DNA from: a virus
Direction: 5' to 3' (one strand)
DNA length: 64,000 bases
Virus record (IMG/VR): IMGVR_UViG_3300023499_000220
Coordinates: 113,645-177,644 of that record
Below the pieces are notes generated by a model. The model was not told where the DNA came from and did no database searches. It saw only the letters and a list, made by a program, of their open reading frames with translations. Both the position numbers and the translations under genes were made by a program. Position 1 is the stretch's first letter. The number at the start of each line of letters is the position of its first letter. Positions 4,625-36,212 of this stretch are shown here, piece after piece.

Positions 4625-4732
4625 TTCTTCTTCATCATCCTTTCGGCGATAACAAAAAATACCGCCACCTCTTACGAGATAGCGGTATGTTGATTTTGAA
4701 TTTTTATTGTTTTTTATCTATCGGATATACTT

Positions 4733-4760
4733 AGTATATCGATTTTGCAGCAATTTGCAA
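4733..4760 (-). promoter_or_regulatory. Family-A promoter copy 2 (TTGCAA-16-TATACT)
   Basis: Plus-strand text agtata-tcgattttgcagcaat-ttgcaa. Conserved downstream element ccgatagataaaaaa. Confidence 0.6.
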
Positions 4761-5627: not shown

Positions 5628-5816
5628 TTACGCGGGTACGCGTACGCAAGAATAGTGGCAAGCTCCACAATTCAGGAACTTTGCCCGCTTCATCGCCTCA
5701 TCCAAGCTGAACCGCGTCGCTTCGTTAATGTTGGCAGTATCACTCTTACACTCTACGTAAAAACGCACATCTCCAAAAAACGGGTCTTTACGGCTTAGCG
5801 CATACATATTTTCCAA
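5628..5816 (-). CDS. small Cys-containing hypothetical protein (62 aa)
   Basis: Intact ORF. A decayed paralogous copy of its N-terminus lies at about 6365..6400. Confidence 0.35.
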   Translation of the reverse strand: MENMYALSRKDPFFGDVRFYVECKSDTANINEATRFSLDEAMKRAKFLNCGACHYSCVRVPA

Positions 5817-5845
5817 AATAAGTCCTCCTCAAATATATTTCTCTC

Positions 5846-5925
5846 AGAACTTCTCGAATTCCTCGCTCGGCATCTGTGCTTTCGCTTCATCCAGCAGTCT
5901 TTTGTAGGAATCGCTGGAAACATTT
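5846..5925 (-). pseudogene. C-terminal remnant of a paralogue of the 253-aa gene at 6403..7164
   Basis: The minus-frame translation VSSDSYKRLLDEAKAQMPSEEFEKF* matches the C-terminus (SSDSYERLLDETEAQMPSEEFEKFWERYI) of the downstream gene, but no upstream part of that gene remains. Confidence 0.5.
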
Positions 5926-6285: not shown

Positions 6286-6402
6286 GCTTTCATCTCCTTC
6301 TTTTTGTCTTCAGCGATGACTTTTTGGAACACGTTAATGTTGGTGGTATCGCTCTTACGCTTTACGGCTCAACACATACATATTTTCCATAATAAGTCCT
6401 CC

Positions 6403-7164
6403 TCAAATGTACCTCTCCCAGAACTTTTCGAATTCCTCGCTCGGCATCTGTGCTTCTGTTTCATCCAACAGTCTTTCGTAAGAATCACTGGAAACATCGG
6501 TGCCAATAAAATCGGCAACGGCATCATGACCGCGCTGCATCAAAGCGTCTTTCAGAATCGCCCAACGGCATTCGTGAATGGCATCATCCAGCGTTTTGTT
6601 GCCATCAGGCTGCCAATACTCGCCTGTCTGCTGAATTCTATAAAACTCATCCAGCGCATCATCAACATTGTTTTCGAGAAGAATATCGTCAATAAAATTG
6701 ACAGGATAATCCTTGCCGTTGATTTTCACTTCTGCATAACTGAAACAGTCGTCGTCACACGGCATTGCTGCGCATGTGACATCGAAAATTTCGTGCGTTT
6801 CCTTGTTTACCTTGCAAGGCAACTGAAATGTTGCTCCGGACTCGAAACAAGAAAAGACAACCGCTTCCTCAACATCGTTGTCGGGGCACTTTGCAGACTG
6901 GATAAATTCCGGCATGGACAGCACATCAATACTCTCCCTTCGGTCACCCATGGCAGGATAAACCTTCATGATTGTATAACCATCATGCTGCAGCTTTCGG
7001 ATAGCACGGCACAGGTCGAGATGCATTTCATGAAGACTGATGCCACTGCCTCGTCCGTCTTTTTTGGTATAGATTTCGACAACTACATCTTCAGAGGTGG
7101 TCTGAACAACATAATAAGTCTTATCATTACAAATCTTAAACATAGCACTTATCTCCCTTCTCAA
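6403..7164 (-). CDS. hypothetical protein (253 aa)
   Basis: Intact ORF. Its 3' end is duplicated at 5846..5925. Confidence 0.4.
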   Translation of the reverse strand: MRREISAMFKICNDKTYYVVQTTSEDVVVEIYTKKDGRGSGISLHEMHLDLCRAIRKLQHDGYTIMKVYPAMGDRRESIDVLSMPEFIQSAKCPDNDVEEAVVFSCFESGATFQLPCKVNKETHEIFDVTCAAMPCDDDCFSYAEVKINGKDYPVNFIDDILLENNVDDALDEFYRIQQTGEYWQPDGNKTLDDAIHECRWAILKDALMQRGHDAVADFIGTDVSSDSYERLLDETEAQMPSEEFEKFWERYI

Positions 7165-7446
7165 TCAAACAAAAGCCAGAAAATCGTTGGCCGGAATCTG
7201 TCGCTGGGCATCGTAAGCGGTGCCGTAGACATCATCACCCCAACTGATTTGCACATCCTTCGTCCACAGAGCAAGCTCAGACATTTTTGCTGCCACGGCT
7301 TTTGCGGAGCTGCAGATATACTTCTTGACGGCGTTGTTTTCTTTTACGTTAATTGTAAACATTTCAATTTCCTCCTTAACACAACAAAAAACAGCCATCT
7401 CGATTGAGATGGCTGCACGAACAGATTTTGAACTAAAACAAGTCAA
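7165..7446 (-). CDS. hypothetical protein (93 aa)
   Basis: Intact ORF directly downstream of family-A promoter copy 3. Confidence 0.35.
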   Translation of the reverse strand: MTCFSSKSVRAAISIEMAVFCCVKEEIEMFTINVKENNAVKKYICSSAKAVAAKMSELALWTKDVQISWGDDVYGTAYDAQRQIPANDFLAFV

Positions 7447-7479
7447 GGAATTGATACTTTGATTTATCTTAGTTCCTTA

Positions 7480-7507
7480 ATTATATCTACTTTGCAGCAA
7501 TTGACAA
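7480..7507 (-). promoter_or_regulatory. Family-A promoter copy 3 (TTGTCA-16-TATAAT)
   Basis: Plus-strand text attata-tctactttgcagcaat-tgacaa. Confidence 0.6.
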
Positions 7508-7537
7508 GATAGCCACAACAGGAATGCAACATCGTAT

Positions 7538-7759
7538 TCACGGTACTTTTTCAACGACATCTTCACCGTAAACCACGAACAGACCAGAGCCGTTATCCCA
7601 GCGAACCATGATACTGCCGGTATCGTCTATACCTGAAACTGTGCCGAGTGTTCCAATAGGTGGAGCCTGAATATCATCCATTTTCAGCAGTTTCACGCGT
7701 GTTCCGGCTGGATATTCGGCACGGAGCGCAGCGACGATTTCTCGATTTGGGAAAGTCAT
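7538..7759 (-). CDS. DUF4314-like small protein (73 aa)
   Basis: The VSGIDDTGSIMVRWDNGSGL motif is typical of DUF4314, which is common on phages and conjugative elements. Confidence 0.45.
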   Translation of the reverse strand: MTFPNREIVAALRAEYPAGTRVKLLKMDDIQAPPIGTLGTVSGIDDTGSIMVRWDNGSGLFVVYGEDVVEKVP

Positions 7760-7775
7760 AAATGTACCTCGCTTC

Positions 7776-8345
7776 TTAATATGTCACGGTGTCAAAGAAC
7801 TCCTGACATTCCTCATCGTTCAACACAACGCCAAAGTACGCAACACGCTCGACGGTGGTTTCCCACACCTTAACGGTACGCGTCATAGGCTGAACGACCC
7901 ACGAATGCTGTCGCCAAAGGCCATCTTCACTTAAAGCGTACCCGGTTGCAATCTGACATCTGCCACGATTTGCATCCCACAGATAAGCAGCGTTCTGATG
8001 GCAACGACAATCCTCGCCCTTCTTCATGTACTTGGAACCATAGAAGAACTGTCCTCGTTCCAGAACTTTTTCCGCATCCTCATCACGGGTATTGAGCAAA
8101 ACCTCATCACCGCCGAAAGTTAAAATTCTATCACGCAGAGCGCGCAAAGTCTTTTTCATTTCGTTTGTGAGCCAAGGCGCGGTGGCGTCCTCGTTGTACA
8201 GCTGCATTGCCTCTACTCGTTTTTTCCATTCCTTATCCATCGGATTCCAGCGGACATGGTTCGCAACCATATCAGGAGAGGTCATGGGCGTTTTGGCATT
8301 CCAACTAAATTTCTTATTTGCCATTATAATACTCCTTTTCAACAA
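7776..8345 (-). CDS. hypothetical protein (189 aa)
   Basis: Intact ORF. Confidence 0.35.
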   Translation of the reverse strand: MLKRSIIMANKKFSWNAKTPMTSPDMVANHVRWNPMDKEWKKRVEAMQLYNEDATAPWLTNEMKKTLRALRDRILTFGGDEVLLNTRDEDAEKVLERGQFFYGSKYMKKGEDCRCHQNAAYLWDANRGRCQIATGYALSEDGLWRQHSWVVQPMTRTVKVWETTVERVAYFGVVLNDEECQEFFDTVTY

Positions 8346-9094: not shown

Positions 9095-9339
9095 TGCCGG
9101 TAAATTGTAAACTTACTGTTCGGGTGCGCCTTCATATAGTCAGCGCGTGCCGCGTCCGTGTTCGCAATCAGTAGATTTTTATCGGCAATAAGAACGCTTT
9201 CCCATCCGGAATCGAGAAGCGTACTGGCAACATCTTTGAAAGATACGTCTGCAGGCGTATCGCACTTACAAACACCTCGTGCGATAGGATGCGCAGTGGC
9301 AATGATTTTTGCTGCCGTCATCACAGTCTCGTAACTCAT
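9043..9339 (-). CDS. hypothetical protein (98 aa)
   Basis: Intact ORF. Confidence 0.3.
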   Translation of the reverse strand: MSYETVMTAAKIIATAHPIARGVCKCDTPADVSFKDVASTLLDSGWESVLIADKNLLIANTDAARADYMKAHPNSKFTIYRQCIDKHGIPRKVTEVWG

Positions 9340-9351
9340 AGTGTCCTCCTA

Positions 9352-9609
9352 TCACGCCACCTCGAAATACTTTTCGACATCGCTGTTGATAGAACGCGCA
9401 GGAACACCCTTGGTCTTCTCACTGTAGTAGCCACGCTTTTTCAGCGTGTTCTTAACAATAGAAATGCTCTTGTCGCTGCGCATGGTACGCTTTCTCTTTT
9501 CGATGCGTGCAGAACGAATGCGCTTTTCGTACTTCTGCATACGCACAACATCCATGATGATAGGAGCAGTAGTCTCCGCGATATACTCATTAAAAGTTTT
9601 CATATTCAC
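9352..9609 (-). CDS. hypothetical basic small protein (85 aa)
   Basis: Intact ORF with a GGAGG ribosome-binding site 4-10 nt upstream. It lies downstream of family-A promoter copy 4 and an intrinsic-terminator-like hairpin. Confidence 0.4.
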   Translation of the reverse strand: MNMKTFNEYIAETTAPIIMDVVRMQKYEKRIRSARIEKRKRTMRSDKSISIVKNTLKKRGYYSEKTKGVPARSINSDVEKYFEVA

Positions 9610-9766
9610 ATATCCTCCGTAATATATTATTTTTCTAAATAAAAAAGGCAGCTATTTTTTCAAAAATAGCTACCTTTAGTACATTGTGATTGGCGATAAT
9701 TCAATCATGCACGCCCATAAAACTCTGGTGCGATGCATTGTGTGATTTTATTTATCGGATAACTAT

Positions 9767-9794
9767 ATATTATTAACTTTGCAGCAATTTGCAA
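9767..9794 (-). promoter_or_regulatory. Family-A promoter copy 4 (TTGCAA-16-TAATAT)
   Basis: Plus-strand text atatta-ttaactttgcagcaat-ttgcaa. Confidence 0.6.
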
Positions 9795-9805
9795 GCGCAG
9801 CATAC

Positions 9806-9841
9806 AATAAAAAGCGCCTCCCGTATTACGGGGAAGCGCCT
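9806..9841 (-). terminator. rho-independent terminator downstream of 9851..10450
   Basis: Minus-strand RNA GCGCUUCCC-loop-GGGAGGCGC followed by UUUUUAUU. Confidence 0.5.
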
Positions 9842-9850
9842 TAGTGTTAT

Positions 9851-10450
9851 TTATTCTTTGTTATCCGAAGGAATTTTCGGAGACTTCTTCTTCTCAACGA
9901 AAGCATCAATCGTTCGGCCGAAACGATTAAGAAGCATTGCGCCAAGATAAAGAATGATGCCGCTAATCATGATACCAACATCAAGCGTCTCAAATCCTGC
10001 AAAACTCTTGCAATAAATAGAACTGACTGCGAGAGCGCCAAGCGTTGGCAGCGAAGCAATCGTTACCGTAAGTGCCGCATACACAACACTATTCAGAACA
10101 GTACCAATACTTGCAATGATGCCGCGCTTTTTAAAAGTGCGCTGCTTATCGTAGGACATCTGATAAGCCCCGATAAGACTTGGTTCACGAATAATGTCGC
10201 GCAGATGCAGCAGGCACCACGCCAAAACAGCACACCCGATGCCGCAGCCGACCTTATAGGCACTCATGCGAGAACCCCACAGGTCATTTGCGTTGGCGGG
10301 AACGACGAACGCCAGAATATTGAACAGGACGGCAAACAAGACGAACATTGCCATGTGGGGATTCTTGGCAGTGTTGCGAGCCTCGTTCTTTGCCTTACTG
10401 GCGACTTCCTCGGTCTGATTGTGAATTTTTACATTGAGAATTTTTTCCAT
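9851..10450 (-). CDS. integral membrane protein (199 aa)
   Basis: Several hydrophobic helices. No signal peptidase site. Confidence 0.45.
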   Translation of the reverse strand: MEKILNVKIHNQTEEVASKAKNEARNTAKNPHMAMFVLFAVLFNILAFVVPANANDLWGSRMSAYKVGCGIGCAVLAWCLLHLRDIIREPSLIGAYQMSYDKQRTFKKRGIIASIGTVLNSVVYAALTVTIASLPTLGALAVSSIYCKSFAGFETLDVGIMISGIILYLGAMLLNRFGRTIDAFVEKKKSPKIPSDNKE

Positions 10451-10494: not shown

Positions 10495-10827
10495 TTAATC
10501 TCTGTGATAGCGCTGCATCATACCGAACATAGCCGCAAGCGCCAATGCAAGGTAGATGTAAGTGTATCCCTTTTCAATCATGTTCAGAATCACGATGGTA
10601 AAGCTCGAAAAAGCACCACAATAAAAAGCGGCACCAAGTTTATCGACCAAAAACATCAACATCTGGGCAACGACTGCCGCAGGAACAAGAAGCTTGAGAC
10701 GCTTGGCCTCAATGATTCCGTCCCAGTCAAGAACAGCAATGAAGCTGGCTCCCATGCAGATGACCCAAACAAAAGCGAAAATAAGGGTTGCTGTGTCAAA
10801 AAAGTTACTCATATCAGTTACCTCCAA
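10495..10827 (-). CDS. small polytopic membrane protein, paralogue 1 (110 aa)
   Basis: Shares about 45% identity with the adjacent ORF 10868..11197, with the same length and hydropathy profile and an identical 3' end (tctgtgatagcgc). Tandem duplication. Confidence 0.5.
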   Translation of the reverse strand: MEVTDMSNFFDTATLIFAFVWVICMGASFIAVLDWDGIIEAKRLKLLVPAAVVAQMLMFLVDKLGAAFYCGAFSSFTIVILNMIEKGYTYIYLALALAAMFGMMQRYHRD

Positions 10828-10867: not shown

Positions 10868-11197
10868 TTATCTGTGATAGCGCTTTGTCATGCCAAACAT
10901 AGCTGCAATCATAATCGCCAAATATGCGTACAAATACAAGTTCTCAATCATTCCAAGAACTGAAATTGTAAGACTGGCGAACATACCGCAATACAGAACA
11001 GCACCAATTTTTTTGATGATGAACAGCGTGGCTTGCGCAATGATGGCGACAACGAGAAAAACTTTGATGTATTTAGCCTCAAATAAACCATCCCAATCGA
11101 TGGCAAGGAAGATACAAGCCCCCACAGCGAGAGCCCAAACCAAAGCAGCAACAGATGCAACAGCGTCAAAGAAGCTTAACATAGCGAATACCTCCAT
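10868..11197 (-). CDS. small polytopic membrane protein, paralogue 2 (109 aa)
   Basis: See paralogue 1. Lies directly downstream of family-A promoter copy 5. Confidence 0.5.
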   Translation of the reverse strand: MEVFAMLSFFDAVASVAALVWALAVGACIFLAIDWDGLFEAKYIKVFLVVAIIAQATLFIIKKIGAVLYCGMFASLTISVLGMIENLYLYAYLAIMIAAMFGMTKRYHR

Positions 11198-11324
11198 GTT
11201 TTAAATAGGTTAATGTTCGGACATCTATATAAACAGCAAAAAGCCGCCAATGGGACAATCCACTGGCGGCTCAGTTGCCGATTGCAATAATACAGTTAAA
11301 TCATTTGATTTATGTTATGTCTCA

Positions 11325-11352
11325 ATTATATTAACTTCGCAGCATAATGCAA
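11325..11352 (-). promoter_or_regulatory. Family-A promoter copy 5 (TTGCAT-16-TATAAT)
   Basis: Plus-strand text attata-ttaacttcgcagcata-atgcaa. Confidence 0.55.
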
Positions 11353-11360
11353 GAGCTTTT

Positions 11361-12332
11361 TCAGAAGACTTCGTCAAGTTTTGCACATACAATAAAACGA
11401 GTATCGTAATTATCACTGCCTGAACAGGTGGACAAAATCAAAACCTTATCATTCAATCCAACTTCTGTGGCGTACTGATTGTAAGAGTAAGCTTTCATAC
11501 TTGCAATCTCTGTCAGAAAATACGAATCATCCGGATTCGCAATGGTATAACTTGGGTCAATAGGATAATCGGCAACGGCAAAGATTTTCCATCGTGTCTG
11601 TTGTTCACCCAAAGTAAGATAAATATACCGATGTTCCTTTGCAAAGTTGACATCGCGAAAGTATTTCAAAACACTGAATTTCTTGTGCATACTATTTCCG
11701 TTGCTATGTCCAAAAATAACAGTTACTCTGTACATATCGTCAACATTGCTGACATTCCATTCGGAGGGAACAAAATAAGCGCCCCAGATACTTTCCCTAT
11801 CGAACTCATTGTGAGTCAGGTAATAATCATCGTCTGTGGGATGCTGCAAAATGGGCTCATCTGTAACATCAACGCCGGGAACAGTTAAGTAACCAACGGT
11901 GTTCTTGGAATACGCTGGCTTTGGTGTTGGTTCCGGTTCTGAATCACTCTCACTTGAATTAGAAGACGGGATAAGAATCGAGGGAGTAGAAACGGGTTCT
12001 TCTACATCGTCGGAGATGTTTCCTGTCTCATATGCAGGGATATGATAGTAATCATACGCCTTCCATCCAATATAGCCAATCATGGCAATAAGAACGATGC
12101 AAATTACGACCAACAAAACTGTCCAGATGGAAAATCGCCGTTTCTCTTTGCCCTCTGACACGTCCATCGCATCCATCGATTCATTGTCATCCTCGTCATG
12201 GCTTGCCTTTTGATGAGGGAAGTTTTCACCAGTTCCATCATCCTCATCATTTGGAATGTAATTGTACGCACCAAGTTCCTGTTCGAAATGTTCTTCTTCG
12301 GGCAGTGGTGGAATAATAGGTGTTTTTGCCAT
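11361..12332 (-). CDS. srtB: class B sortase (323 aa)
   Basis: N-terminal membrane anchor. SrtB-type VGYLTVPGVDV motif. Catalytic triad: His in IFGHSNG, Cys in LILSTCS, Arg in YDTRFIV. Confidence 0.75.
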   Translation of the reverse strand: MAKTPIIPPLPEEEHFEQELGAYNYIPNDEDDGTGENFPHQKASHDEDDNESMDAMDVSEGKEKRRFSIWTVLLVVICIVLIAMIGYIGWKAYDYYHIPAYETGNISDDVEEPVSTPSILIPSSNSSESDSEPEPTPKPAYSKNTVGYLTVPGVDVTDEPILQHPTDDDYYLTHNEFDRESIWGAYFVPSEWNVSNVDDMYRVTVIFGHSNGNSMHKKFSVLKYFRDVNFAKEHRYIYLTLGEQQTRWKIFAVADYPIDPSYTIANPDDSYFLTEIASMKAYSYNQYATEVGLNDKVLILSTCSGSDNYDTRFIVCAKLDEVF

Positions 12333-12343
12333 AATACATCACC

Positions 12344-13507
12344 TTACTCAGCTGCGGCAGACCGCTCGTACACATCAATGCAGTAGTTGCCCATAATCTT
12401 GTTGTACATGCACTCCTGTGCCAAAGGACCTGCCCCATAGGTATCAACGGCGTTATCGTAGTTACCGCCAATATAAGCTTTCACTTCATCGACAGACGGT
12501 TTATAGTCCTGTTCCTCTGCCAGATACTGCGCAACAAGGCTCAGTAAAACATTTTCTTCCGTCTGACTACGAAGACTTTCTGAATACTCCTCCGAGGTCT
12601 TATAATTGCTGTATGTCTGAACGAATGTCTCCAAGTCCATATTGTAGGCAGTTGCTTCGTTTTCGACATACTTCAAGTTGGTTTCAAGACTCAGGTTGAC
12701 AAGGTCTGTCGTATCCTTTTTGAGTTTTACATTGTCAATGAAATACTGTTCAATCTCATTCTGAATCTTATTCATACGAAGATTCTCTTCAACATATTCA
12801 CGAAGCAGGTCTACTGTAGTTACAGCAGTGCCGTCTTGCAGCTTGTAGCCACTCATGATACCGGCAACATCAGCATCTGTCATGCTATATTGAGAAATCT
12901 TATTAAGCGTTACATGGAAAACAGCTTCCTTGTTGGCGAGCTCGATAGTCTGCTCGCCTGTAGTTCTATCTGTTGTACTGCTATATCCATCAGGGAATGT
13001 TACCGTAACATCAAACGAATCCCCCGTGTTATGCCCGACGATTTGCTCTTCAAATCCGTCAATAAAGGTATTGGAACCGAGTTCCAAATCGTAGTCTTCT
13101 GTTGTTCCACCGGTAAAAGCAACACCATCAACCGTACCCTCATAGTCAATGTTCACAACATCACCTTCCTGTGCGGCGCGGTCTGTTACCTCTGTCGTCA
13201 GCTTGTAATTGGACTGAAAATAATCCAACTCGCTTTGAATCTCCTCGTCTGTAACGGCGTATACATCTTTGCTGACCGTATACTTCTTATAATCCTTGGG
13301 CATCTTTATGTATTTGGACGCAGTCACATCACGAAAATACCCGTCATCATCAAGACCGAGGTCATACTCAACAGCGGAAGCTGTTTCGGAGGTGGCTGTT
13401 TCCGCAGTCTCAGATGCACTTGTATCGGCCGTATCTTTACTGCACGCGGTCAATGCAATACATGCGGCACTGATGACTGCCAAAATCTCTTTTGCATTTT
13501 TTTTCAT
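12344..13507 (-). CDS. secreted lipoprotein with trigger-factor-like FKBP-type PPIase domain (387 aa)
   Basis: Signal peptide plus lipobox ALTAC. The stretch GDVVNIDYEGTVDGVAFTGGTTEDYDLELGSNTFIDGFEEQIVGH closely follows the trigger-factor PPIase-domain consensus. Confidence 0.65.
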   Translation of the reverse strand: MKKNAKEILAVISAACIALTACSKDTADTSASETAETATSETASAVEYDLGLDDDGYFRDVTASKYIKMPKDYKKYTVSKDVYAVTDEEIQSELDYFQSNYKLTTEVTDRAAQEGDVVNIDYEGTVDGVAFTGGTTEDYDLELGSNTFIDGFEEQIVGHNTGDSFDVTVTFPDGYSSTTDRTTGEQTIELANKEAVFHVTLNKISQYSMTDADVAGIMSGYKLQDGTAVTTVDLLREYVEENLRMNKIQNEIEQYFIDNVKLKKDTTDLVNLSLETNLKYVENEATAYNMDLETFVQTYSNYKTSEEYSESLRSQTEENVLLSLVAQYLAEEQDYKPSVDEVKAYIGGNYDNAVDTYGAGPLAQECMYNKIMGNYCIDVYERSAAAE

Positions 13508-13565
13508 AAAAAAACTCCTTTATAAAAAAGACCCCGGCAGACAGGTTGCCTACCGGGGCAGTATT

Positions 13566-13817
13566 TTAAACGAACAGGAACGGAACGTGAAGCAACAGAG
13601 CGTATGCCGCATCCATAATGCCAATAATAACGGCGGATACAGCACTCACAACAAGAACTGCTCCGGTTCGATGGAGCGTGTTGTGCATACTCGGCCAAGT
13701 CACATTTTTGGGTGCAACCAAATTGTGAAGCTTCTTAGGCGTGCTCTTGACGAAAGAAGGAATTGCCTTCACGAAATTCGCAATAGCCGTTCCTACCTTT
13801 TTCAGTTTATCTTTCAT
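13566..13817 (-). CDS. secE: SecE-like translocon subunit (about 84 aa from MKDKLKK; ORF extends to 13883)
   Basis: KNVTWPSMHNTLHRTGAVLVVSAVSAVIIGIMD matches the SecE consensus (KKVsWPtrkE..t..Vi...i...lD) with a single C-terminal TM segment. Its start overlaps the SecG stop by 4 nt. Confidence 0.65.
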   Translation of the reverse strand: MKDKLKKVGTAIANFVKAIPSFVKSTPKKLHNLVAPKNVTWPSMHNTLHRTGAVLVVSAVSAVIIGIMDAAYALLLHVPFLFV

Positions 13818-14068
13818 GCCGCACCTCCTACTCCGGTTACTACGAACATGATGATTGCAATAACAAGCAGAATAGCTGTACATACAGCAACCAGTTTATT
13901 TGCGGACGTTTTCGTGCTGTCTTTAGCACTCGAGCGCATTGTATCACTGATTCCGGTGATAACACTAAGACTGTTCTTGTCGGCCTTATCCATGGAAAGC
14001 GTAACCGCACAAACCAGAACAGAAACCAACAGAATCAAGATGCACAGAATGATTTCATAAATTGCCAT
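13814..14068 (-). CDS. secG: SecG-like translocon subunit (84 aa)
   Basis: Two TM helices flank a loop LSMDKADKNSLSVITG, comparable to the SecG LQssKsaGLSGAisGG loop. Immediately follows secY. Confidence 0.55.
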   Translation of the reverse strand: MAIYEIILCILILLVSVLVCAVTLSMDKADKNSLSVITGISDTMRSSAKDSTKTSANKLVAVCTAILLVIAIIMFVVTGVGGAA

Positions 14069-14083
14069 TGTGTTGCCCTCCCG

Positions 14084-15424
14084 TCAATTCAAGAAACCCT
14101 TGTGATGGCGAACCACCAAATGGCTGTTAAGAGAATCGATAACTTCAAGCGTAACACCTGTGACAATCAACAGACTGGTACCGCCAAAGTGCATGTTCAG
14201 ACCTGTAACCGCAGTTGCCAAGATAGGCACACATGCAATAACCGAAAGAACAAATGCTCCCGAACCGGCGAGAGAATGGCAAGCATTGCGCAGATAATCA
14301 CTGGTAGCTTTGCCTGCTCGAATACCGGGGATACTGCCGCCGTTCTTGCGCAGGTTGTTTGCCATTTCGATGGGGTCGAATGTGATGTCGATGTAGAATA
14401 AGTTGAATGCGAAAATCAGGGCTACATACGCAACATCATAAATCCAATTCCGCGAATTCCAAGATGCCAGCGCCATATACAGGCTGGGGTGCTTGTTGTA
14501 ATCGAGGAACATCGTCACGAGAGACGGCATACTGCAAATGGTGGACGAGAAAATAATAGGCATAACACCCGACATAATCAGTTTGATGGGGATATAACTG
14601 GACTGACCAGTGGATGCTTTGTTCCCTACATTTTTACCGGCATACTGAACAGGAACGCGGCGCTCTGCATCGCTTGCGAAAACGACATAGAAGGTGGCCG
14701 CCAAAACAAAGAGGATGACGCCGGGAATCATCAGATAATACCACCATCCATTTTCTTTGCCCATTGCAATAGAGTTCTGGAACAACGAGATGACAGCATC
14801 CCATCTGGAAATGATACCGGTAAAGATGATAAGGGAAATACCGTTGCCAATACCTTTTTCGTCAATCAGCCATCCAAGCCAGATGACGATTTGAGAACCA
14901 GCAGTCAGAATGGCAATAACAGTAATGGCTTCCACGACCTGCGAAATGCCGGAAGTGTATTTCATCGCACCGTAGTTCTTCATAATAAAGAAGTACCCGA
15001 TAGCTGTTACGACCGCCAAACTACAACCAACATACTGCGTGATTTTATTGATTTGCTTCTGCCCGCCGATGTCCTTGCTGATTTCTTCCAGTTTCGGAAT
15101 CGCAACAGTCAAAAGCTGGATAATGATGCTTGCGTTGATGTATGCAGATACGCCAATCGCAAATACCGCACACTGAGAAAGTGCGCCACCGGAAACCAGA
15201 TTGTAATAATCCAGTACAGAGGTGCTTCCGAACATAGTCTGAAGCGCAGCGGTGTTTACGAACGGAATCGTAATACCGCAACCCAGACGATAAATCAGAA
15301 GACAAAGGATGGTGAAGAGAATCTTGTTGCGAACATCATCCACCATCAGCTTCTGAAAGATGGTGCTGTTCGAATAAGACTTTTTGAGTTTCGGCTTTTT
15401 CGCCGGATTTTTAATGTTGTCCAA
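14084..15424 (-). CDS. secY: SecY paralogue (accessory preprotein translocase channel, 446 aa, TTG start)
   Basis: Clear SecY signatures: ASIIIQLLTV, GIGNGISLIIF, PGIRAGKAT, FGGTSLLIV. Not part of an rplO-secY-adk operon. Confidence 0.9.
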   Translation of the reverse strand: MDNIKNPAKKPKLKKSYSNSTIFQKLMVDDVRNKILFTILCLLIYRLGCGITIPFVNTAALQTMFGSTSVLDYYNLVSGGALSQCAVFAIGVSAYINASIIIQLLTVAIPKLEEISKDIGGQKQINKITQYVGCSLAVVTAIGYFFIMKNYGAMKYTSGISQVVEAITVIAILTAGSQIVIWLGWLIDEKGIGNGISLIIFTGIISRWDAVISLFQNSIAMGKENGWWYYLMIPGVILFVLAATFYVVFASDAERRVPVQYAGKNVGNKASTGQSSYIPIKLIMSGVMPIIFSSTICSMPSLVTMFLDYNKHPSLYMALASWNSRNWIYDVAYVALIFAFNLFYIDITFDPIEMANNLRKNGGSIPGIRAGKATSDYLRNACHSLAGSGAFVLSVIACVPILATAVTGLNMHFGGTSLLIVTGVTLEVIDSLNSHLVVRHHKGFLN

Positions 15425-15448: not shown

Positions 15449-15724
15449 TTATCGAGCAAAGAAAGCAACGATGATTCGCATCAGAAAGGCTACAACGGCC
15501 AACTTCGTTGCAAGCCACATGAACCAATCGAGTTTGTCGATACCTTCGTCGAATACATTTGTTGCGGCAGCATCTTTTTTGTTACTGTCGCAATCCCCGT
15601 CAACATGGTTTTTTTTGATTTTGTTGCGATTAAGCACAAACAAAGTTCGAAACAAAGCCCATGTTGCAATACAGAATCCGTATACGATTAGAAGCTCGAT
15701 ACAGAAACTGTGCAAAGACGACAT
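15449..15724 (-). CDS. small two-TM membrane protein (91 aa)
   Basis: Two hydrophobic helices. First gene upstream of secY in the same orientation. Confidence 0.4.
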   Translation of the reverse strand: MSSLHSFCIELLIVYGFCIATWALFRTLFVLNRNKIKKNHVDGDCDSNKKDAAATNVFDEGIDKLDWFMWLATKLAVVAFLMRIIVAFFAR

Positions 15725-16401
15725 TAAGCGGATGCGCCGTTGGCGTCAGGAGTCGTATTGGAGGCGGTCTCGGCAACGGTCTCTACCGGAGTTTCCGTGA
15801 CAGTCTCTGCGGAAGAAGTAATATCCCCAGTGATTGCGGGGACATTGGCATCTTCTGCGACCGACTCATTGATGGGCGCTTCAATAACCGCATCCTTGAC
15901 TCCATCAGCAGTCACTTTCTTTGCTGCGATTTTTGCGAAGTGCTCATTGCGCTTTTCACGGCAAGCCTTGCAGCGGGTGGGGAGCTTGTAGTCATGGACG
16001 ACATACCAGTACAGCTCGCGATTGGTAAACTGCAGCTTCTGACCGCAATCTGCGCAAGTGTCTTCCAGACCGATGTTATCCAGTCCGCGCTTCACGAAGT
16101 CGCGATGAATCTTGCGGCATTCCGGGCAGTGGTTCGGCAGAGAATAACCGTGGCTCTCGAAGAAATCGCGGTCACGATTGGTGATGTCGAATTCATGACC
16201 GCAGTCAACGCACTTGCGGGTCTCAAACACCTCATTGCTCTTTGCATCAGCTTCCTTGCGAGCTTCATCCTCTGCGCGGCGCTTTGCGAAATCGTCACGC
16301 ATACGACACTCGCGGCACAGCACCTCGCTCTCATTGGCGGTGCTGAACGGCTTGTTGCACTTCTCACAGGTCTTGCGGAATTTCTTTGCTGCATCTTTCA
16401 T
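15724..16401 (-). CDS. triple zinc-ribbon repeat protein (225 aa)
   Basis: Three CxxC-(n)-CxxC units: CEKCN...CRECR, CVDCG...CPECR, CADCG...CKACR. Confidence 0.5.
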   Translation of the reverse strand: MKDAAKKFRKTCEKCNKPFSTANESEVLCRECRMRDDFAKRRAEDEARKEADAKSNEVFETRKCVDCGHEFDITNRDRDFFESHGYSLPNHCPECRKIHRDFVKRGLDNIGLEDTCADCGQKLQFTNRELYWYVVHDYKLPTRCKACREKRNEHFAKIAAKKVTADGVKDAVIEAPINESVAEDANVPAITGDITSSAETVTETPVETVAETASNTTPDANGASA

Positions 16402-16445: not shown

Positions 16446-16961
16446 TTAGGCGTTGGGACCAGAAAAAGAATCAATAATTTCATCAACGTGGACGTTCAAG
16501 TCGGACTTGTCATCATCTTTCTTGGCGGGCTGTTTTACAGGAACAACGATATCAGGCTCATTCTTCTTTTTCTCCGCCGCCTTTTCTTCAACAGGCTTCT
16601 CTGCGGATTCATCCTTGGCCTCAGTGACCTCGGACGCACTATCGGAATCCACCTTGCCGGATTCATCCTTACCGGCATCAGGATTCGCCTCGGTTGCCTT
16701 ATCAGTATCCTTTTTCGTCTCATCATGCTTGCGTTCTACGCGGATGACATGAACGGCAGCCACGGGCGCGTGATGAATGTCATCGATGCGCTCATCACAA
16801 CCGCAGCACTCATCACAGTCATCACAATCGTCGTCATCATAAAGATAACCGTCATCCTCCAACTCTTTGATGACCTCGTTCTTCACATACTTGGTCGTGA
16901 GTTTCAGGGCAACGGCTGCAACAGTGGCGGCACCAATAACGGACAGAATGTTCTTCTTCAT
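16446..16961 (-). CDS. membrane-anchored acidic Cys/Asp-cluster protein (171 aa)
   Basis: N-terminal signal anchor. DDDDCDDCDECCGCDE cluster. Lys/Glu-rich tail. Lies downstream of family-B promoter copy 1. Confidence 0.45.
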   Translation of the reverse strand: MKKNILSVIGAATVAAVALKLTTKYVKNEVIKELEDDGYLYDDDDCDDCDECCGCDERIDDIHHAPVAAVHVIRVERKHDETKKDTDKATEANPDAGKDESGKVDSDSASEVTEAKDESAEKPVEEKAAEKKKNEPDIVVPVKQPAKKDDDKSDLNVHVDEIIDSFSGPNA

Positions 16962-17008
16962 AAATTTCTCCTTTGACTAAAAAGCAATGTTTCGCTTGGA
17001 ATATTTAT

Positions 17009-17037
17009 ATTATACCACATAAATATAATGTGGTCAA
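17009..17037 (-). promoter_or_regulatory. Family-B promoter copy 1 (TTGACC-17-TGGTATAAT)
   Basis: Plus-strand text attataccacataaatataatgtggtcaa. Probable promoter of the operon running from 16961 down through secYGE and srtB. Confidence 0.55.
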
Positions 17038-17098
17038 TACAAATTGCGAATAAAAAAATGCCCCGCCGAAGCAGGGCATGTGAAATATCAGAAGTGCC

Positions 17099-17809: not shown

Positions 17810-19208
17810 CGGGTTTTTTCTTTATTAAAGAGTCCCCGAATCGATTTACATGTTCTTTCGGCGGTTCAATGACCTCGATATCGGTATCCTCCACCTTTTC
17901 GATTTCGTCAGAGGAATCGTCATCTTTTTCGTTCTGAACCTTATCCGATGGATTGGTGATTTGTGCATCCTCTTTTGCAACATTTGAAAGCAAATCAAAT
18001 GTCAACTGAGAATTCGAGGACGCTGGTTTCTTTTCTCTTTTCTTGGTTGTTTGGCGTTTTTTGGAAGTTCTTTTTGACTTTACAGGTTCATTGGAACCAC
18101 CATCGTTTGTTTTTGCACTTGCTGTGTTTGAATCAACAACCGCATCCGCTGAAGCCTTATCCTTGTTTGTTTCTGTGACGGGTTCCTGAACCTTTTTGTT
18201 TTTTGATAAATCATCTTTGTCTGATTGTTTTGATTCCAAAGCAGAAGACTCTTGTGCGTTTGAGCCTTGCTCTTCTTGCACTACAGATTCTTCCTTTACT
18301 GGAACCTTGGCAGTTCCCTTCTGCAAAAGGCCATCGATTGCTACAACGGCCTCAGACTTCTTTTCTTCGGACTCCGCCTTTTGTACTGCACGGCGAATCG
18401 CCTCAGTTTTTTCTTTCTTTTCTTTTTCTGCTGATGCGGTATTTTCGCTTTCCTTTATCTCAGCAGGCACATTCATGGCAGATTTCGAATTCCACCACTT
18501 CTCAATAGTAGTAATCGTTCTTTCTACTAATATTATACCACAAAATTTGTGGTTTGACAACTTGCGGCTCGGCACAAAGCATACAATACCGCACAGAGAA
18601 ACAACCAGTAAAACAATAGCAAGTCCTGCATCAAAAATAAAACAGATAAACGACACCGGAATCAGCAGCTCGCAGATACCGCGCATGATAAATACTGTTT
18701 TATCTCCTTGGTCTTTTCGGTTTTGCATAAAACTGTCTCTCCCCTTCTGCGGGTGATAAGACAAACCACTTGACAAGCCGTTTGTTGCCCAATCACAAGG
18801 TATCTCGTAAGTCTTTTCTCCTAAGCTGTCTGTGTACTGAATTACAGCAATATCAAAATATTCACCATTCTTCTGTGATGCCAAGAATGCACGTAAGAAT
18901 TCATTTCCAACAGACCGCGCAGGAACAATAATCGTTTCGATGCCGTCAGAATCTTTTGCGGCGATATCTACTACATAGGTATCATCTTCACCGCGCCATA
19001 CGTTCTGCACAATACCGCGCACCAATATACCGCGCTTATGAACACGCCTTCCCATAAAAGTAAAGGAGTTTTCAGAATACCACGTGTTTACCATGCAATA
19101 CGCAGCAATAATAAGCAATGTAAGGTACTTAACATTTATGGTGATAATGCTTAAAGAAAAAATATACGGAACGAGCATCAGCAAGACGAATGATACAAAG
19201 CTATTCAC
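17784..19208 (-). CDS. membrane protein with disordered Lys/Glu/Ser-rich C-terminal region (474 aa)
   Basis: Two N-terminal TM segments and internal TM segments. Low-complexity tail. Confidence 0.45.
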
Positions 19209-24209: not shown

Positions 24210-25169
24210 TTAAATTTCACCGCTCATGGTCAGCTTTGCACGAGCCATGATTTCATATCCTTTTGCATTTGCGGTTACATCCGTCAAGAAGAAAAGGTTC
24301 TTGGTGTCAATGGCTCGCTCGATGCTTTCGCGCATCATAGCAGAACCACCACCCATAAAGATGAAATAGGATGTTTTGAAATCGTCCTTGATTTTTTCGG
24401 AAATCGTACGAATCAATGCTGTTGCATAATTGTCTGCGGTTTCCTTGGCAATTTTCACGGCGTTTTCATCGACCAGCATGTTGTTGTTCCCTGCAAGGAT
24501 TGCCTCAGCCATGTAGTCATCGACCGACAAGGAACAATGGACACGCAGCTCGCTCTCGACAGTGCTCAGGAGTTCAATGACTCCACGGTCATAGCTTTCG
24601 CAGAAAGAAAGGTCCGGAGCATAAGTGTTGCTGCGACCAGAGAAACGAATCACATCCGTGGTATACCCGCCGATGTCTACAACATAAGAACGGGGATAGC
24701 GCTTGATTTCCTTCTGAATCTCGCCTGCTGCCGTAATAGAAAAGCCCTGAGGATAGACAAAGACGTGCTTGACAGTAATCTCGAACGGGATATCTTTGTA
24801 CATGAAATTGATGAGTTTCCCGTTTTTGCCGAAATACTCATCATACTTCGCTTTCAGGGACATATGCTGCGGGGGCAAGCCCATCGCGAGGCATACATCG
24901 TATTTGTAGAATTTCTGATTGGGATACTTCTTTATAAGGTTCTTTGCTACGGCAATCAGCGTCAGCAAAAAGTAAGTATCATCCTTCGTCTTATCCTGCT
25001 GATAAGGCGTGCGGCTGTCATTGAGAGAATAATACTTCCCCATATAGCACATCGTCTCTCCCTTGATAGCCGGTTCAGTCGTACCGTGACGAACAAGACC
25101 AGTGGGAAACGGCTCACAGCCAGGCGTCTTCATTGCCTTGTTTCCGGTATCTACTCCAATAATCTCCAT
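24210..25169 (-). CDS. parM: ParM/StbA-type actin-like segregation ATPase (320 aa from MEIIGVD; ORF open to 25346)
   Basis: Phosphate-1 motif IGVDTGNKAMK and phosphate-2 motif VVDIGGYTTDV. GGAGG ribosome-binding site 7 nt upstream of the ATG at 25169. Confidence 0.8.
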   Translation of the reverse strand: MEIIGVDTGNKAMKTPGCEPFPTGLVRHGTTEPAIKGETMCYMGKYYSLNDSRTPYQQDKTKDDTYFLLTLIAVAKNLIKKYPNQKFYKYDVCLAMGLPPQHMSLKAKYDEYFGKNGKLINFMYKDIPFEITVKHVFVYPQGFSITAAGEIQKEIKRYPRSYVVDIGGYTTDVIRFSGRSNTYAPDLSFCESYDRGVIELLSTVESELRVHCSLSVDDYMAEAILAGNNNMLVDENAVKIAKETADNYATALIRTISEKIKDDFKTSYFIFMGGGSAMMRESIERAIDTKNLFFLTDVTANAKGYEIMARAKLTMSGEI

Positions 25170-25406
25170 AAAAAATCCTCCGAACGAGTCGCAATATAGT
25201 TGAAAGTACGAATTTTGGGATACTCTGCGTGATAAAATATAAGTGTCTACCAGATAACAATGGGACTCACTGACTGATGCATAGCGGTTGTTAAAATGGA
25301 AAGAACAACTAATATACAACTGTCTGTTGTTATCATGATACCACACATGCAGTTGTCCAGCAACGAACTTTTGTTCGCATAGGCAACAAAAAGAAAGGAG
25401 TTATTT

Positions 25407-30962: not shown

Positions 30963-31126
30963 TGAATCTGTCCCCCGTGTTTGCTTGTTGATTCGTATGA
31001 TATTGCCTATTTATTCTAATATAGTCAACATCAAAAAACTGCGTAAAAAATCGCACAGATGTTCTTCTGCGCTGTTCCACCATAGAAATATCACCGATAT
31101 TCCCTGTTCATCTTGAACATATCTAT

Positions 31127-31155
31127 ATTATACCACATTAAAACAAGGTAGTCAA
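31127..31155 (-). promoter_or_regulatory. Family-B promoter copy 2 (TTGACT-17-TGGTATAAT)
   Basis: Plus-strand text attataccacattaaaacaaggtagtcaa. Confidence 0.55.
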
Positions 31156-31223
31156 CGACAAAAACCGTCGCAAATGTTAGTTTTCGCATTTACGACGGCT
31201 GAAGTTATATTTTTTTGAGCAAA

Positions 31224-32759
31224 TTATTTTATATCGCTTGCGTTTTCGTCAGGTTCGATGTGTGCATTGTCATCAGCCTTCTCGATTACAGGCAAACCGT
31301 GAATGTTGATATTGCGGTCAGTCTTAGCATTGATACTGTTCGCACGAACGATATCGGCCATATCGATACCGGTAGCTTCCTTGACGGTCTGCATGGTCTG
31401 TGCCATCAGCACGGGAACATTCCCAGACACGCCGGAAACGCCAGATGCATCGCCGCCAATGATAGACACCTTATCGATTGCGGACAAGGGCTGAGCCACA
31501 TTCTTAGCAATATCAGGCAGGACCTTGATAAGCATTTCAGCGACAGCAGCATCGTTGTACTGCTTGTAAGCTTCCGCCTTTTGCTTCATAGCTTCGGCTT
31601 CAGCAATACCCTTCTGACGGATAGCCTCAGCTTCTGCCTTACCTACAAGGGCAATACCTTCGGCTTCCTGCTGCTTTGCAAATTTCTGAGCCTCAGCAGC
31701 GCGTTCGGCTTCGTATTTTTTTGCTTCTGCTTCTTTTTGGCGTTTATACAATTCGGCATCCGCAGCTTTGCGAACCTCTGCATCCAGTTTTCTCTGCTGA
31801 ACCTCGGCTTCCTGTGCAGCAAGGTCGACCATCTTCTTCTGCTTTGCGATTTCCGCATCAGCTTCGGCTTCCTTGATTTCCTTGGCGCGAAGATTTGTCT
31901 GAATCTGTCCTGCAGCGTTGGCATCAGCAGCAGCCTTGTCAGCCTCGGCTTTCAATTTGGCCTTTGCCAGCTGCAATTCATTGTTGCGCTGTGCAATAGC
32001 AGTCTGGGCTTCAACTTCCTTTTCATTGGCTGCCATTTCAGCGTCAGCCTTTGCGCGAGCAATATCACGAGCGGCTTCGGCACGAGCAATCTCTGCACGT
32101 TTCTTGACGGCTTCTTCCTGCTCAATACCAATAGCCTCAATGACGCCGTGATTGTGACCCTGCGCATCAACGGCGTCTTTTACATCCTGCACATTGAATG
32201 TTACAACTTCGAGGCCCATCTTTGCAAGGTCAGGACGGGCATTTTCGATTACTGACAGCGCCATTTGTTTACGATTTGTGAGAATCTGGTCAACCGTCAT
32301 ATCCGAAACGATTTCGCGCAGGTTGCCTTGCAAGACATCATTTACTTTATCATTGATGCCTTTTTCGTCCATGCCAAGGAAGTTCGAAATAGCCGACTGC
32401 TGACGACCCGTAATATATTCCTTGACATCCTTTGCACCAGATGCCTGAACCTCAGAGTCGAGAACAGTAGAATTATCGCTGTATACCTGAATCGTTACAA
32501 CAGAATCAATCCAGAGCGATACGCCTTCTTTTGTCTTGACACCCGTCTCAGGGGTTTTGACATCAATTTTCAGAAGACGCATATTCAGCTTATCTGCACG
32601 CTGCAGCACAGGGATGACAAATGTACCCTTTCCACAAACGACCTTGGGCTTTTTCAAGCCGAATCCAGTCACAACGATGGCTGCTGTGGGAGGCGCTTTT
32701 TTGTAGCATGTGAATGCGAACAAAACAAACAATACGACAATGATGATTCCTAAAAACAT
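31224..32759 (-). CDS. flotillin / SPFH (band-7) domain protein (511 aa)
   Basis: N-terminal TM segment, SPFH domain, and a long Ala/Glu/Lys-rich coiled-coil (EA-repeat) region typical of FloT/YqiK flotillins. Confidence 0.85.
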   Translation of the reverse strand: MFLGIIIVVLFVLFAFTCYKKAPPTAAIVVTGFGLKKPKVVCGKGTFVIPVLQRADKLNMRLLKIDVKTPETGVKTKEGVSLWIDSVVTIQVYSDNSTVLDSEVQASGAKDVKEYITGRQQSAISNFLGMDEKGINDKVNDVLQGNLREIVSDMTVDQILTNRKQMALSVIENARPDLAKMGLEVVTFNVQDVKDAVDAQGHNHGVIEAIGIEQEEAVKKRAEIARAEAARDIARAKADAEMAANEKEVEAQTAIAQRNNELQLAKAKLKAEADKAAADANAAGQIQTNLRAKEIKEAEADAEIAKQKKMVDLAAQEAEVQQRKLDAEVRKAADAELYKRQKEAEAKKYEAERAAEAQKFAKQQEAEGIALVGKAEAEAIRQKGIAEAEAMKQKAEAYKQYNDAAVAEMLIKVLPDIAKNVAQPLSAIDKVSIIGGDASGVSGVSGNVPVLMAQTMQTVKEATGIDMADIVRANSINAKTDRNINIHGLPVIEKADDNAHIEPDENASDIK

Positions 32760-33005: not shown

Positions 33006-33043
33006 AAATGGAATTCCCCCTGTCTTTCCAATTGATATATTAT

Positions 33044-33072
33044 ATTATACCACAAATAGGCGAATGAATCAA
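33044..33072 (-). promoter_or_regulatory. Family-B promoter copy 3 (TTGATT-17-TGGTATAAT)
   Basis: Plus-strand text attataccacaaataggcgaatgaatcaa. Confidence 0.45.
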
Positions 33073-33124
33073 TGAAAAAAGACGAGCAAGATATTTCTCA
33101 CTCGCCTTCTGCTCTTTTGTGTTG

Positions 33125-34213: not shown

Positions 34214-34277
34214 AGCTTTTTTTGGCGTCTTAGCAGCTTGTCTGCCTGTACGCCGCCTCCTTTCGAATTCTCCTTTT

Positions 34278-34305
34278 ATTGTATCTACTTTGCAGCAAAT
34301 AGCAA
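34278..34305 (-). promoter_or_regulatory. Family-A promoter copy 6 (TTGCTA-16-TACAAT)
   Basis: Plus-strand text attgta-tctactttgcagcaaa-tagcaa. Confidence 0.5.
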
Positions 34306-34913: not shown

Positions 34914-34929
34914 TCCTCCTCTTTTCTAT

Positions 34930-34958
34930 ATTATACCACATTTTGCCTTAATGGTCAA
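34930..34958 (-). promoter_or_regulatory. Family-B promoter copy 4 (TTGACC-17-TGGTATAAT)
   Basis: Plus-strand text attataccacattttgccttaatggtcaa. Confidence 0.55.
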
Positions 34959-35155
34959 CTTGTATAATACAAAAAAGATAGCCACCCATTTCTGAGCGGC
35001 TATCTGAAGATTTGAGGTCCACATTCAGCGCCTAAACCCTGTTCTGCTTCCCTGATGACTGGTTTTATCGTTGCTCGCCAACCGCAGGTCTATACATCCT
35101 GCATCGCACTTTGAGAAAATAATCGAGTTTATGTGCCAGCCTCACAAGGCGTCTT

Positions 35156-35860: not shown

Positions 35861-36040
35861 TCTAACGCAACCCGTGCAGGTTGCAACTGAAAGCAGCGCA
35901 CGATGCTAGTCTATTTCAATCTAACGCAACCCATGCGGGTTGCAACAGCAAACTTACACATTTTCATGTGTGTTTGTTCGATGTGCATATTTCAATCTAA
36001 CGCAACCCGTGCGGGTTGCAACAGCAAACTTGCACAAACG
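35830..36040. repeat. three tandem ~60-75-bp repeats, each with the core ATTTCAATCTAACGCAACCCGTGCGGGTTGCAAC (an 18-bp palindrome)
   Basis: Cores at 35854..35887, 35913..35946 and 35989..36022. The flanking ttttcatgtgtgtttg(ttc)gatgtgcat and agcaaactt(a/g)caca segments are also repeated. Confidence 0.8.
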
Positions 36041-36176
36041 GAGCAATAAGTTGTCATGCATTTTGTACAGTGTTTGTCTGTTTTTTGACCATACAATATG
36101 GTCAGATGCTACTTACTGCAATGGAATCATATCCTTTCATCATATTGTTTGAACAAGCTTCATGCACTATGCTTAT

Positions 36177-36205: not shown

Positions 36206-36212
36206 CAAAGAA

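Follow-up and report, generated by a model that had tools for sequence, protein, structure and literature searches.

What is a complete set of Sec channel subunits doing, together with a foldase and a sortase, on a piece of DNA that is catalogued as viral? The locus in question lies in a 64-kb stretch (positions 113,645 to 177,644 of IMG/VR record IMGVR_UViG_3300023499_000220; hereafter the window), in which five co-directional genes at 11361-15424 encode SecY, a SecG-like protein, SecE, a trigger-factor-like lipoprotein and a class-B-type sortase. An initial annotation of this DNA had placed the five genes, which all lie on the minus strand, exactly and had read them as a self-contained module for exporting, folding and anchoring giant surface proteins, in an arrangement thought to be undescribed. 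The best explanation, which we hold with considerable though not full confidence, is that the window derives from a Hodor-type conjugative megaplasmid of human-gut Bacillota that carries a conserved surface module, with a second translocon, a tethered foldase and a sortase that would serve giant proteins. The arrangement is already known, having been published with the same functional reading in PMC12934698 (Yuan et al., bioRxiv, 22 Feb 2026), and the suggestion of novelty is therefore withdrawn. The rest of the plasmid lies outside the view given by the window. The five genes, with lengths in amino acids (aa), are:

11361-12332, minus strand: class-B-type sortase, 323 aa, sub-threshold to TIGR03064, with PDB matches to SrtB only and conserved motifs
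12344-13507, minus strand: lipoprotein foldase, 387 aa, with a signal peptide and lipobox, a linker, and the FKBP peptidyl-prolyl isomerase (PPIase) and C-terminal chaperone domains of trigger factor
13566-13817, minus strand: secE, 83 aa, single-helix type, its start overlapping the secG stop
13814-14068, minus strand: secG-like, divergent, 84 aa, two transmembrane helices, between secY and secE
14084-15424, minus strand: secY, 446 aa, TTG start, a canonical-type, full-length channel subunit

SecY exceeded the cut-offs of both general models, with 290.9 bits against PF00344 (cut-off 32.2) and 329.8 bits against TIGR00967 (cut-off 253.6; profile positions 1-410 of 414), and stayed under those of the SecY2 models (TIGR02920, 147.5 bits vs 249.6; NF009082, 146.7 bits vs 353). 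It is collinear with chromosomal SecY and retains the conserved blocks, the main difference being 17 additional residues, of basic character, at the N-terminus. The TTG start is preceded by a GGAG ribosome-binding site, and both are kept in a sister group of contigs at 90% SecY identity. The neighbours of the gene are secG, secE and a zinc-finger protein gene, with no ribosomal-protein or adk/map genes, unlike chromosomal L020. The window SecY is a SecY homologue outside the housekeeping locus, which lies at the end of the spc operon, before adk and map.

The two small open reading frames (ORFs) next to secY had been assigned to SecG and SecE, and searches with hidden Markov models upheld this fully for SecE and in part for SecG. 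SecE passes both models (PF00584, 32.6 bits vs 22.7; TIGR00964, 30.1 bits vs 27.55), and its C-terminal hydrophobic segment is kept in orthologues. According to gene calls on identical contigs, its start is that of an 83-aa gene and not of the 105-aa ORF of the mechanical list; the overlap with secG is 4 nucleotides (nt), read in the sequence as ATGA, as originally described. For the 84-aa ORF, SecG is the best Pfam match, and 14 of 15 diverse homologues match Pfam SecG at E ≤ 0.01 (best 3.4e-7), with no other family recurring. Its length and two-helix layout fit SecG (about 70-110 aa, two helices joined by a loop), and an ORF of this kind stands between secY and secE in every element lineage examined. 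The top PDB match of the family profile was Aquifex SecG (3dl8_E), a weak one (E = 0.067), and the profile search drew in only element-borne relatives, bona fide SecGs not being reached. On this sequence evidence we accept the ORF as a putative divergent SecG, the window copy itself lying under curated cut-offs.

The lipoprotein begins with MKKNAKEILAVISAACIALTAC, followed by S, and carries the lipobox L-T-A-C with Cys22, which agrees with the lipoprotein signal-peptide pattern [LVI][ASTVI][GAS]C; lipidation is predicted. Behind the signal peptide comes a disordered linker of ~25 aa, and then a region scoring 61 bits against FKBP_C. The trigger-factor model TIGR00115 gave 171.5 bits, just under its cut-off of 180.2, with only profile positions 108-368 aligned, and PDB 8p7x was matched over trigger-factor residues 125-388 (E = 6e-20). 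In an AlphaFold model built on 32 homologues (predicted local distance difference test score, pLDDT, 86; residues 1-44 disordered), the eight best PDB folds were all trigger factors, and the 50 best-ranked fold matches included no PrsA or SurA structure. Among the 32 homologues the lipobox Cys hardly varies, and nearly all of them begin with a lipobox or an N-terminal membrane anchor (most of those lacking the lipobox have the anchor). A lipoprotein with a trigger-factor-type PPIase domain, as first proposed, is thus confirmed. Judged by its sequence, the protein is homologous to domains 2 and 3 of trigger factor without being a trigger factor itself.

Like trigger factor (Tig), the foldase has an FKBP domain and C-terminal arms, but a lipoprotein signal peptide stands in place of the N-terminal ribosome-binding domain, and for these two reasons it cannot act on ribosomes as Tig does. 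It is probably membrane-tethered, and so would act outside the cell, after translocation, in a PrsA-like manner. PrsA and SurA are membrane-tethered or periplasmic PPIase-chaperones that act after translocation. From general knowledge, the likeness to PrsA extends to a lipoprotein anchor, a PPIase domain, a helical chaperone module and a position suited to receiving proteins that leave SecYEG; the difference is that the PPIase domain is FKBP-type, not parvulin-type, and that homology to trigger-factor domains 2 and 3 extends over the entire mature protein. The window yielded no second lipoprotein. The text of PMC12934698 has no mention of a lipoprotein, a lipobox or PrsA. A chromosomal stand-alone trigger-factor-like lipoprotein, annotated 'trigger factor', occurs in Faecalibacterium prausnitzii CP186691.1 (L021, 6001-7143), and others lie on another contig type with mostly unknown genes (L022 and L023, 6001-7149). 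This family of lipoproteins appears to be uncharacterised and mis-named.

The sortase consists of an acidic cytoplasmic N-terminal tail of ~65 aa, which is unusual, one transmembrane helix, a Ser/Glu/Pro-rich linker and the catalytic domain. All nine of its PDB sequence matches are class B enzymes (E = 4.9e-12 for 5b23 to 7e-7), including 5b23, 5jcv, 5gyj, 4ux7, 1ng5 and 1qwz from C. perfringens, Listeria, C. difficile and S. aureus. The motifs FGHSNGN and LILSTCSG align with sortase B 5b23 and, together with TRFIVCAK, are kept in orthologues; we take the catalytic His, Cys and Arg to be those placed by position in the FGHSNGN, LSTC and TRF motifs. The SrtB-type assignment made at the outset therefore holds on PDB matches and motifs and fails on family models, no Pfam Sortase match being obtained at E ≤ 1. 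A regular-expression search of the window found no other sortase.

Two very large genes on the same strand encode the presumed substrates:

36285-44303, minus strand: surface protein, presumed substrate, listed as an ORF of 2672 aa with a GTG start (~2650 aa from the first ATG)
44668-63996, minus strand: giant surface protein, presumed substrate, >6442 aa, its N-terminus beyond the window end

The 2672-aa ORF has a Sec signal peptide and five MBG_2 repeats, and ends in VVNYKTGVGF, a hydrophobic helix and KKKN. The >6442-aa ORF, which corresponds to the 7309-7704-aa protein of PMC12934698, contains MBG_2, 22 DUF11 and 18 DUF7507 repeats and ends in SNKKTGIGF, a hydrophobic helix and HKRKK, while the sister-group orthologue of the smaller protein ends in AQAPTGVGL, a helix and KKK. 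Both plasmid groups thus conserve a sorting-signal-like core of the form x-T-G-[VI]-G, followed by a hydrophobic helix and a basic tail, and a regular-expression search of the window ORFs found no such tail besides those of the two giant proteins. A gene for a FloT-like flotillin of 511 aa (31224-32759, minus strand; Band_7 and Flot domains; NF058507, 261 bits, under cut-off) is located between the Sec cluster and the genes of the giant surface proteins. This flotillin, a membrane scaffold in a secretion-rich region, may belong to the surface module.

How the module is transcribed can be read, with due caution, from the following features around the five genes:

17005-17037, minus strand: sigma-70-type promoter, TTGACC-17 nt-TGGTATAAT, one of six repeated promoter-like copies
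16446-16961, minus strand: 171-aa protein, first gene past the promoter, with a hydrophobic segment at the N-terminus and a tail that is acidic and rich in Cys
15724-16401, minus strand: zinc-finger protein, 225 aa, cytoplasmic, with three CxxC...CxxC treble-clef repeats (zf_Tbcl; PF13451, 37.3 bits)
15449-15724, minus strand: 91-aa protein with two hydrophobic segments, resembling a two-helix membrane protein
13531-13559, minus strand: intrinsic-terminator-like hairpin between secE and the foldase gene, with a 13-bp stem (8 G-C pairs) and then a T-run
11241-11272, minus strand: terminator-like hairpin after the sortase gene, closing the foldase-sortase unit

The terminator of the preceding unit, at about 17075-17050, lies upstream of the promoter at 17037-17005, which is the probable start of the operon holding secYGE; the three genes upstream of secY are too closely packed for a promoter before secY itself. 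Promoter and terminators together point to two probable units, one running from the 171-aa gene through the zinc-finger, 91-aa, secY and secG genes to secE, and the other comprising the foldase and sortase genes. The zinc-finger gene lies directly upstream of secY in three lineages (the window, L001 at 9179-9916 and L016 at 7277-7933; 48-62% identity). Its product, which has a low-complexity tail, is probably the 'hyp' of the published Hodor module and is a candidate cytoplasmic partner. The 171-aa gene is present in identical-SecY contigs; the 91-aa gene, called in L009-L014 and not in L001, is restricted to the window group and absent from the 90% sister group. None of the three proteins had an informative PDB or NCBIfam match, and the 91-aa and 171-aa proteins also had no Pfam match.

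Near-identical promoter-like copies occur at 17001-17045, 18524-18560, 31119-31163, 33041-33080, 34922-34966 and 36169-36213. On the minus strand they read TTGAC, ~17 nt and (TG)GTATAATATA, and several stand just upstream of gene starts, which suggests that several operons of the region use one common strong sigma-70-type promoter. The initial annotation had described this region as parMR-bearing with repetitive promoters, and these six copies are accompanied by a segregation gene:

24210-25346, minus strand: ParM/Alp7A-type actin-like segregation protein (PF21522, PF17989, PF22128; PHROG 'partition protein', 7e-29), indicating a plasmid context

Comparison with related contigs placed the cluster in a wider setting. 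The five-gene order is kept in the sister group at 90% SecY identity (L001, L005-L008 and L024-L025) and again at 59% (L016). Between the window group and the 90% group, identity of the cluster DNA is detectable only over secY-secE, at 78%, and over this part the ratio of nonsynonymous to synonymous substitution rates (dN/dS) is ~0.05-0.08 for secY, secG and secE (0.05 for secY); since dS is saturated for most gene pairs, the ratio is given only for these three genes against the 90% group. These values indicate strong purifying selection on secY, secG and secE, and together with the order kept at both levels of identity they mean that the arrangement is not due to chance.

A rough neighbour-joining tree divided the SecYs into three groups, namely the element-borne clade of the window (60-100% identity), a second element-borne clade (L018/L019) of 428-aa SecYs with 51-54% identity to the window SecY, and chromosomal Gemmiger-like SecYs with ~48% identity, located in a classical ribosomal-protein operon of 56.6% G + C (GC) content (L020). 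The window SecY thus stands apart from the chromosomal SecYs and, on the failed SecY2 models, from SecY2 as well, which supports the original view of an accessory and not a housekeeping locus. L018 (7652-9416) and L019 (3908-5672) carry secY followed by SecG-like and SecE-like genes, with no foldase or sortase, flanked by genes for RecJ, RNase H, a RecG-like helicase, NADAR and a sigma factor. Large gut elements of at least two kinds therefore bear Sec trios. Gemmiger and Faecalibacterium are the nearest chromosomal kin of SecY and foldase alike, which may offer a weak hint as to the donor or host lineage.

A very large number of metagenome assemblies contain the SecY family, with 1,455 member sequences in a single 90%-identity cluster, and among the matches examined the lineage is confined to non-ribosomal metagenome contigs of at most about 390 kb; such contigs, of 270-389 kb, have 44-49% GC, 8-13 points under the locus of the nearest chromosomal relative. 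These contigs reach 382 kb in metagenome assemblies and span 89-389 kb in IMG/VR, where they are catalogued as viral. A human gut metagenome is named as the source of at least some samples; the NCBI copy of the window SecY lies on a 2.5-kb contig in assembly GCA_900523035.1, and other contigs with the same SecY carry the human gut metagenome label. The window SecY had zero matches in 185,579 GTDB species-representative genomes, and the cluster DNA had no nucleotide match among PLSDB plasmids and INPHARED phages, in which the SecY protein matched only housekeeping SecYs at ≤45% identity, many of them in mis-labelled chromosomal fragments.

Which element, then, carries these genes? According to PMC12934698, 'Hodor' conjugative megaplasmids of the human gut are 211-389 kb long and form two groups with GC of 47.1% and 44.6%; they encode Rep_3, ParA/ParB/ParM and a type IV secretion system, were first noticed among "huge phage" genomes and are present in IMG/VR. 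Their surface module is reported to consist of hyp-SecY-SecG-SecE, a trigger factor, a class B sortase and two giant proteins of 7309-7704 aa and ~2642 aa with MBG domains, signal peptides and cell-wall sorting signals, all among the few genes common to both deeply diverged groups. Two co-transcribed sets, secY-secG-secE and trigger factor with srtB, are described there, along with a proposal in which the Sec pore of the plasmid serves for export, the trigger factor as a chaperone and the sortases for anchoring. The window agrees with this description in its surface module, giant proteins, ParM-like gene, GC of 46.6% and relatives on contigs of 240-389 kb, some of them labelled human gut; genes for Rep_3, ParA/ParB and a type IV secretion system would fall beyond its 64 kb. 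Gene set and order, giant MBG proteins, ParM, GC (44.6-47.1%), size, human-gut origin and presence in a viral catalogue are all shared, the terminators of the window match the two co-transcribed sets, and we see no essential difference. On local GC, which over 21 kb around secY is 43.8% in this group vs 48.4-48.9% in the sister group, the window probably belongs to the lower-GC Hodor group G2. Beyond the text of PMC12934698 go the tethered foldase without a ribosome-binding domain, the x-T-G-[VI]-G motif, the conserved zinc-finger gene and the second, secYGE-only clade.

If the module works as its anatomy suggests, the strong sigma-70-type promoter would drive an operon of the zinc-finger protein and SecY-SecG-SecE, and these three subunits would form an additional translocon in the membrane of the host. 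The two giant MBG/DUF11 proteins would first be threaded through this plasmid-encoded channel, with a motor that would have to come from elsewhere (no secA was found in the window), presumably from the host. On the outer face of the membrane the tethered trigger-factor-like foldase would receive them in a PrsA-like way, and the sortase would then cleave them at the conserved T-G of the C-terminal signal and join them to the cell wall. The gene neighbourhood and the co-transcription reported in PMC12934698 suggest a putative dedicated link between translocon and giant proteins; that the plasmid channel handles these proteins, and that this sortase is the one that acts on them, we infer. The giant surface proteins may serve in adhesion to mucus, or in cell-cell contact for conjugation.

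Several observations weigh against this picture or against parts of it. The sortase scored 78.1 bits against TIGR03064 (srtB), under the cut-off of 153.75, and the window SecG copy is under the cut-offs of both Pfam SecG (PF03840, 18.4 bits vs 29.2) and TIGR00810 (20.3 bits vs 30.85). Signals for class B sortases are of a non-LPXTG kind, of the NPxTN, NPKTG or (S/P)PxTG type. NYKTG, NKKTG and QAPTG, found here, are not a characterised sortase B signal. Neither secA nor a signal peptidase gene was seen in the window, so the Sec system cannot be fully self-contained; the export-fold-anchor reading originally put forward otherwise stands, in its anatomy and as a plausible function. At 71% SecY identity, L017 keeps secYGE without an adjacent foldase or sortase, which makes the two units separable. 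PMC12934698 reports further sortases elsewhere on the plasmid (class A, and class C in G1), which might do the anchoring in its place. Finally, that the window is part of a Hodor megaplasmid, although most likely, is an identity by match to a published description.

Two departures from the dedicated-module explanation keep the plasmid and change what its Sec genes are for. One goes further, to an insulated export line in which a zinc-finger-targeted SecYEG is tuned to the 2,650-aa and >7,300-aa proteins only and spares the host translocon, the foldase is an extracytoplasmic FKBP-type PrsA analogue and a divergent SrtB reads a new x-T-G-[VI]-G signal; the insulated line, the FKBP-type PrsA analogue and recognition of x-T-G-[VI]-G were not found in the text of PMC12934698, and we regard this as a tentative possibility, more doubtful than not. 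The other, which we judge unlikely, makes the plasmid SecYEG a general secretion or compatibility device, providing more Sec capacity or an assured translocon in any Bacillota host, with a loose link to foldase and sortase. It draws on the canonical-type SecY, collinear with the housekeeping one, on the separate transcription units of secYGE and foldase-sortase, on the occurrence of secYGE without adjacent foldase or sortase in L017 and in L018 of the second clade, and on the ~21 kb that separate secY from the nearer giant gene in the window. Against this, the foldase and srtB genes stay beside secYGE in three lineages, down to 59% SecY identity, and PMC12934698 lists both the module and the giant proteins among the few genes common to its two diverged groups.

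Other alternatives deny the plasmid or the accessory nature of secY. That the element is a huge phage, with Sec, foldase and sortase genes forming a host-takeover or virion-related module, might be thought from the cataloguing of its 89-389-kb relatives as IMG/VR viral contigs, and from the RecJ, RNase H, RecG-like helicase, sigma factor and HNH genes on more distant secYGE contigs; we find it very improbable nonetheless, since PHROG scans of ten window proteins yielded nothing but the partition protein and a single family without known function, the window encodes a ParM-type segregation protein, and PMC12934698 finds most genomes of both groups without a large terminase (those terminases that were found being ascribed to integrated prophages or chimeric assembly) and equipped with Rep_3, ParA/ParB/ParM and a type IV secretion system. 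Still less credible is that secY is its host's only housekeeping copy in an odd location, or a member of a SecA2/SecY2 accessory Sec system. A full-length, strongly conserved SecY and a weak similarity to the SecY2 models (147 bits) speak for it, but ribosomal-protein and adk/map neighbours are missing, unlike in chromosomal L020, the contigs are at most about 390 kb with their lower GC, the species-representative genomes hold no match, the SecY2 cut-offs of 249.6 and 353 are far from reached, and SecA2, Asp1-3 and glycosyltransferases did not turn up among the window ORFs scanned.

The accessory Sec system of streptococci and staphylococci (SecA2-SecY2-Asp1-5) nevertheless resembles the plasmid module in having a second translocon beside a very large cell-wall-anchored adhesin. 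It had been stated that such systems duplicate only SecA and SecY, which is inaccurate, since SecY2 has small partners of its own: a complex of it with Asp4 and Asp5 has been purified, and for these two, roles like those of SecE and SecG towards SecY have been suggested (PMC5076819). The window system differs in that its SecY is canonical-type with recognisable SecE and SecG homologues as partners, and in that it is plasmid-borne and adds a foldase and a sortase, with SecA2, Asp1-3 and glycosyltransferases unseen in the window. We also compared the window with Inocle elements of oral Streptococcus (PMC12340149), which are giant human-microbiome elements of ~350 kb with a sortase, LPXTG-like proteins and many cell-envelope genes. 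An Inocle origin was rejected on their GC of 24-32%, on their sortase being sortase A and on SecY being unmentioned in PMC12340149.

As to the remainder of the window, every substantial ORF is on the minus strand. A PIN-domain protein and a radical-SAM protein are also encoded, and the remaining proteins have no family match. Just past the sortase terminator come two tandem paralogous small membrane proteins of 109 and 110 aa (10868-11197 and 10495-10827, minus strand), followed by a 199-aa membrane protein (10450-9851, minus strand); none of the three has a family match, and all are kept in contigs with an identical SecY. A second repeated intergenic motif, partly palindromic and reading TTTGCAGCAATTTGCAA on the plus strand and TTGCAAATTGCTGCAAA on the minus strand, is found at 522-554, 4728-4760, 7475-7507, 9762-9794, 11304-11359 and 34273-34305. 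One of these copies, situated shortly past the sortase gene, is weaker, at 61% to the family reference. The motif might act as an operator or as an alternative promoter. At 35820-36027, near the start of a 234-aa gene downstream of the 2,672-aa gene, three ~57-nt direct repeats with the inverted repeat GCAACCCGTGCGGGTTGC may form a regulatory or partition-type site. Elsewhere, a ~138-nt direct repeat of 88% identity (5723-5923 and 6332-6497, 574 nt apart), with an adjacent 35-nt repeat, lies in a stretch with ORF calls on both strands.

That a transmissible plasmid holds a complete SecYEG, accompanied by a foldase, a sortase and proteins exceeding 7,000 residues, means that mobile elements can bring core export machinery with them. 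Tethering moves the place where the foldase probably works to the outer side of the membrane, and a family of extracytoplasmic trigger-factor-like foldases, also chromosomal in Faecalibacterium, is thereby defined. The module is, as already pointed out in PMC12934698, well suited to studies of how cells move extremely long polypeptides across a membrane.

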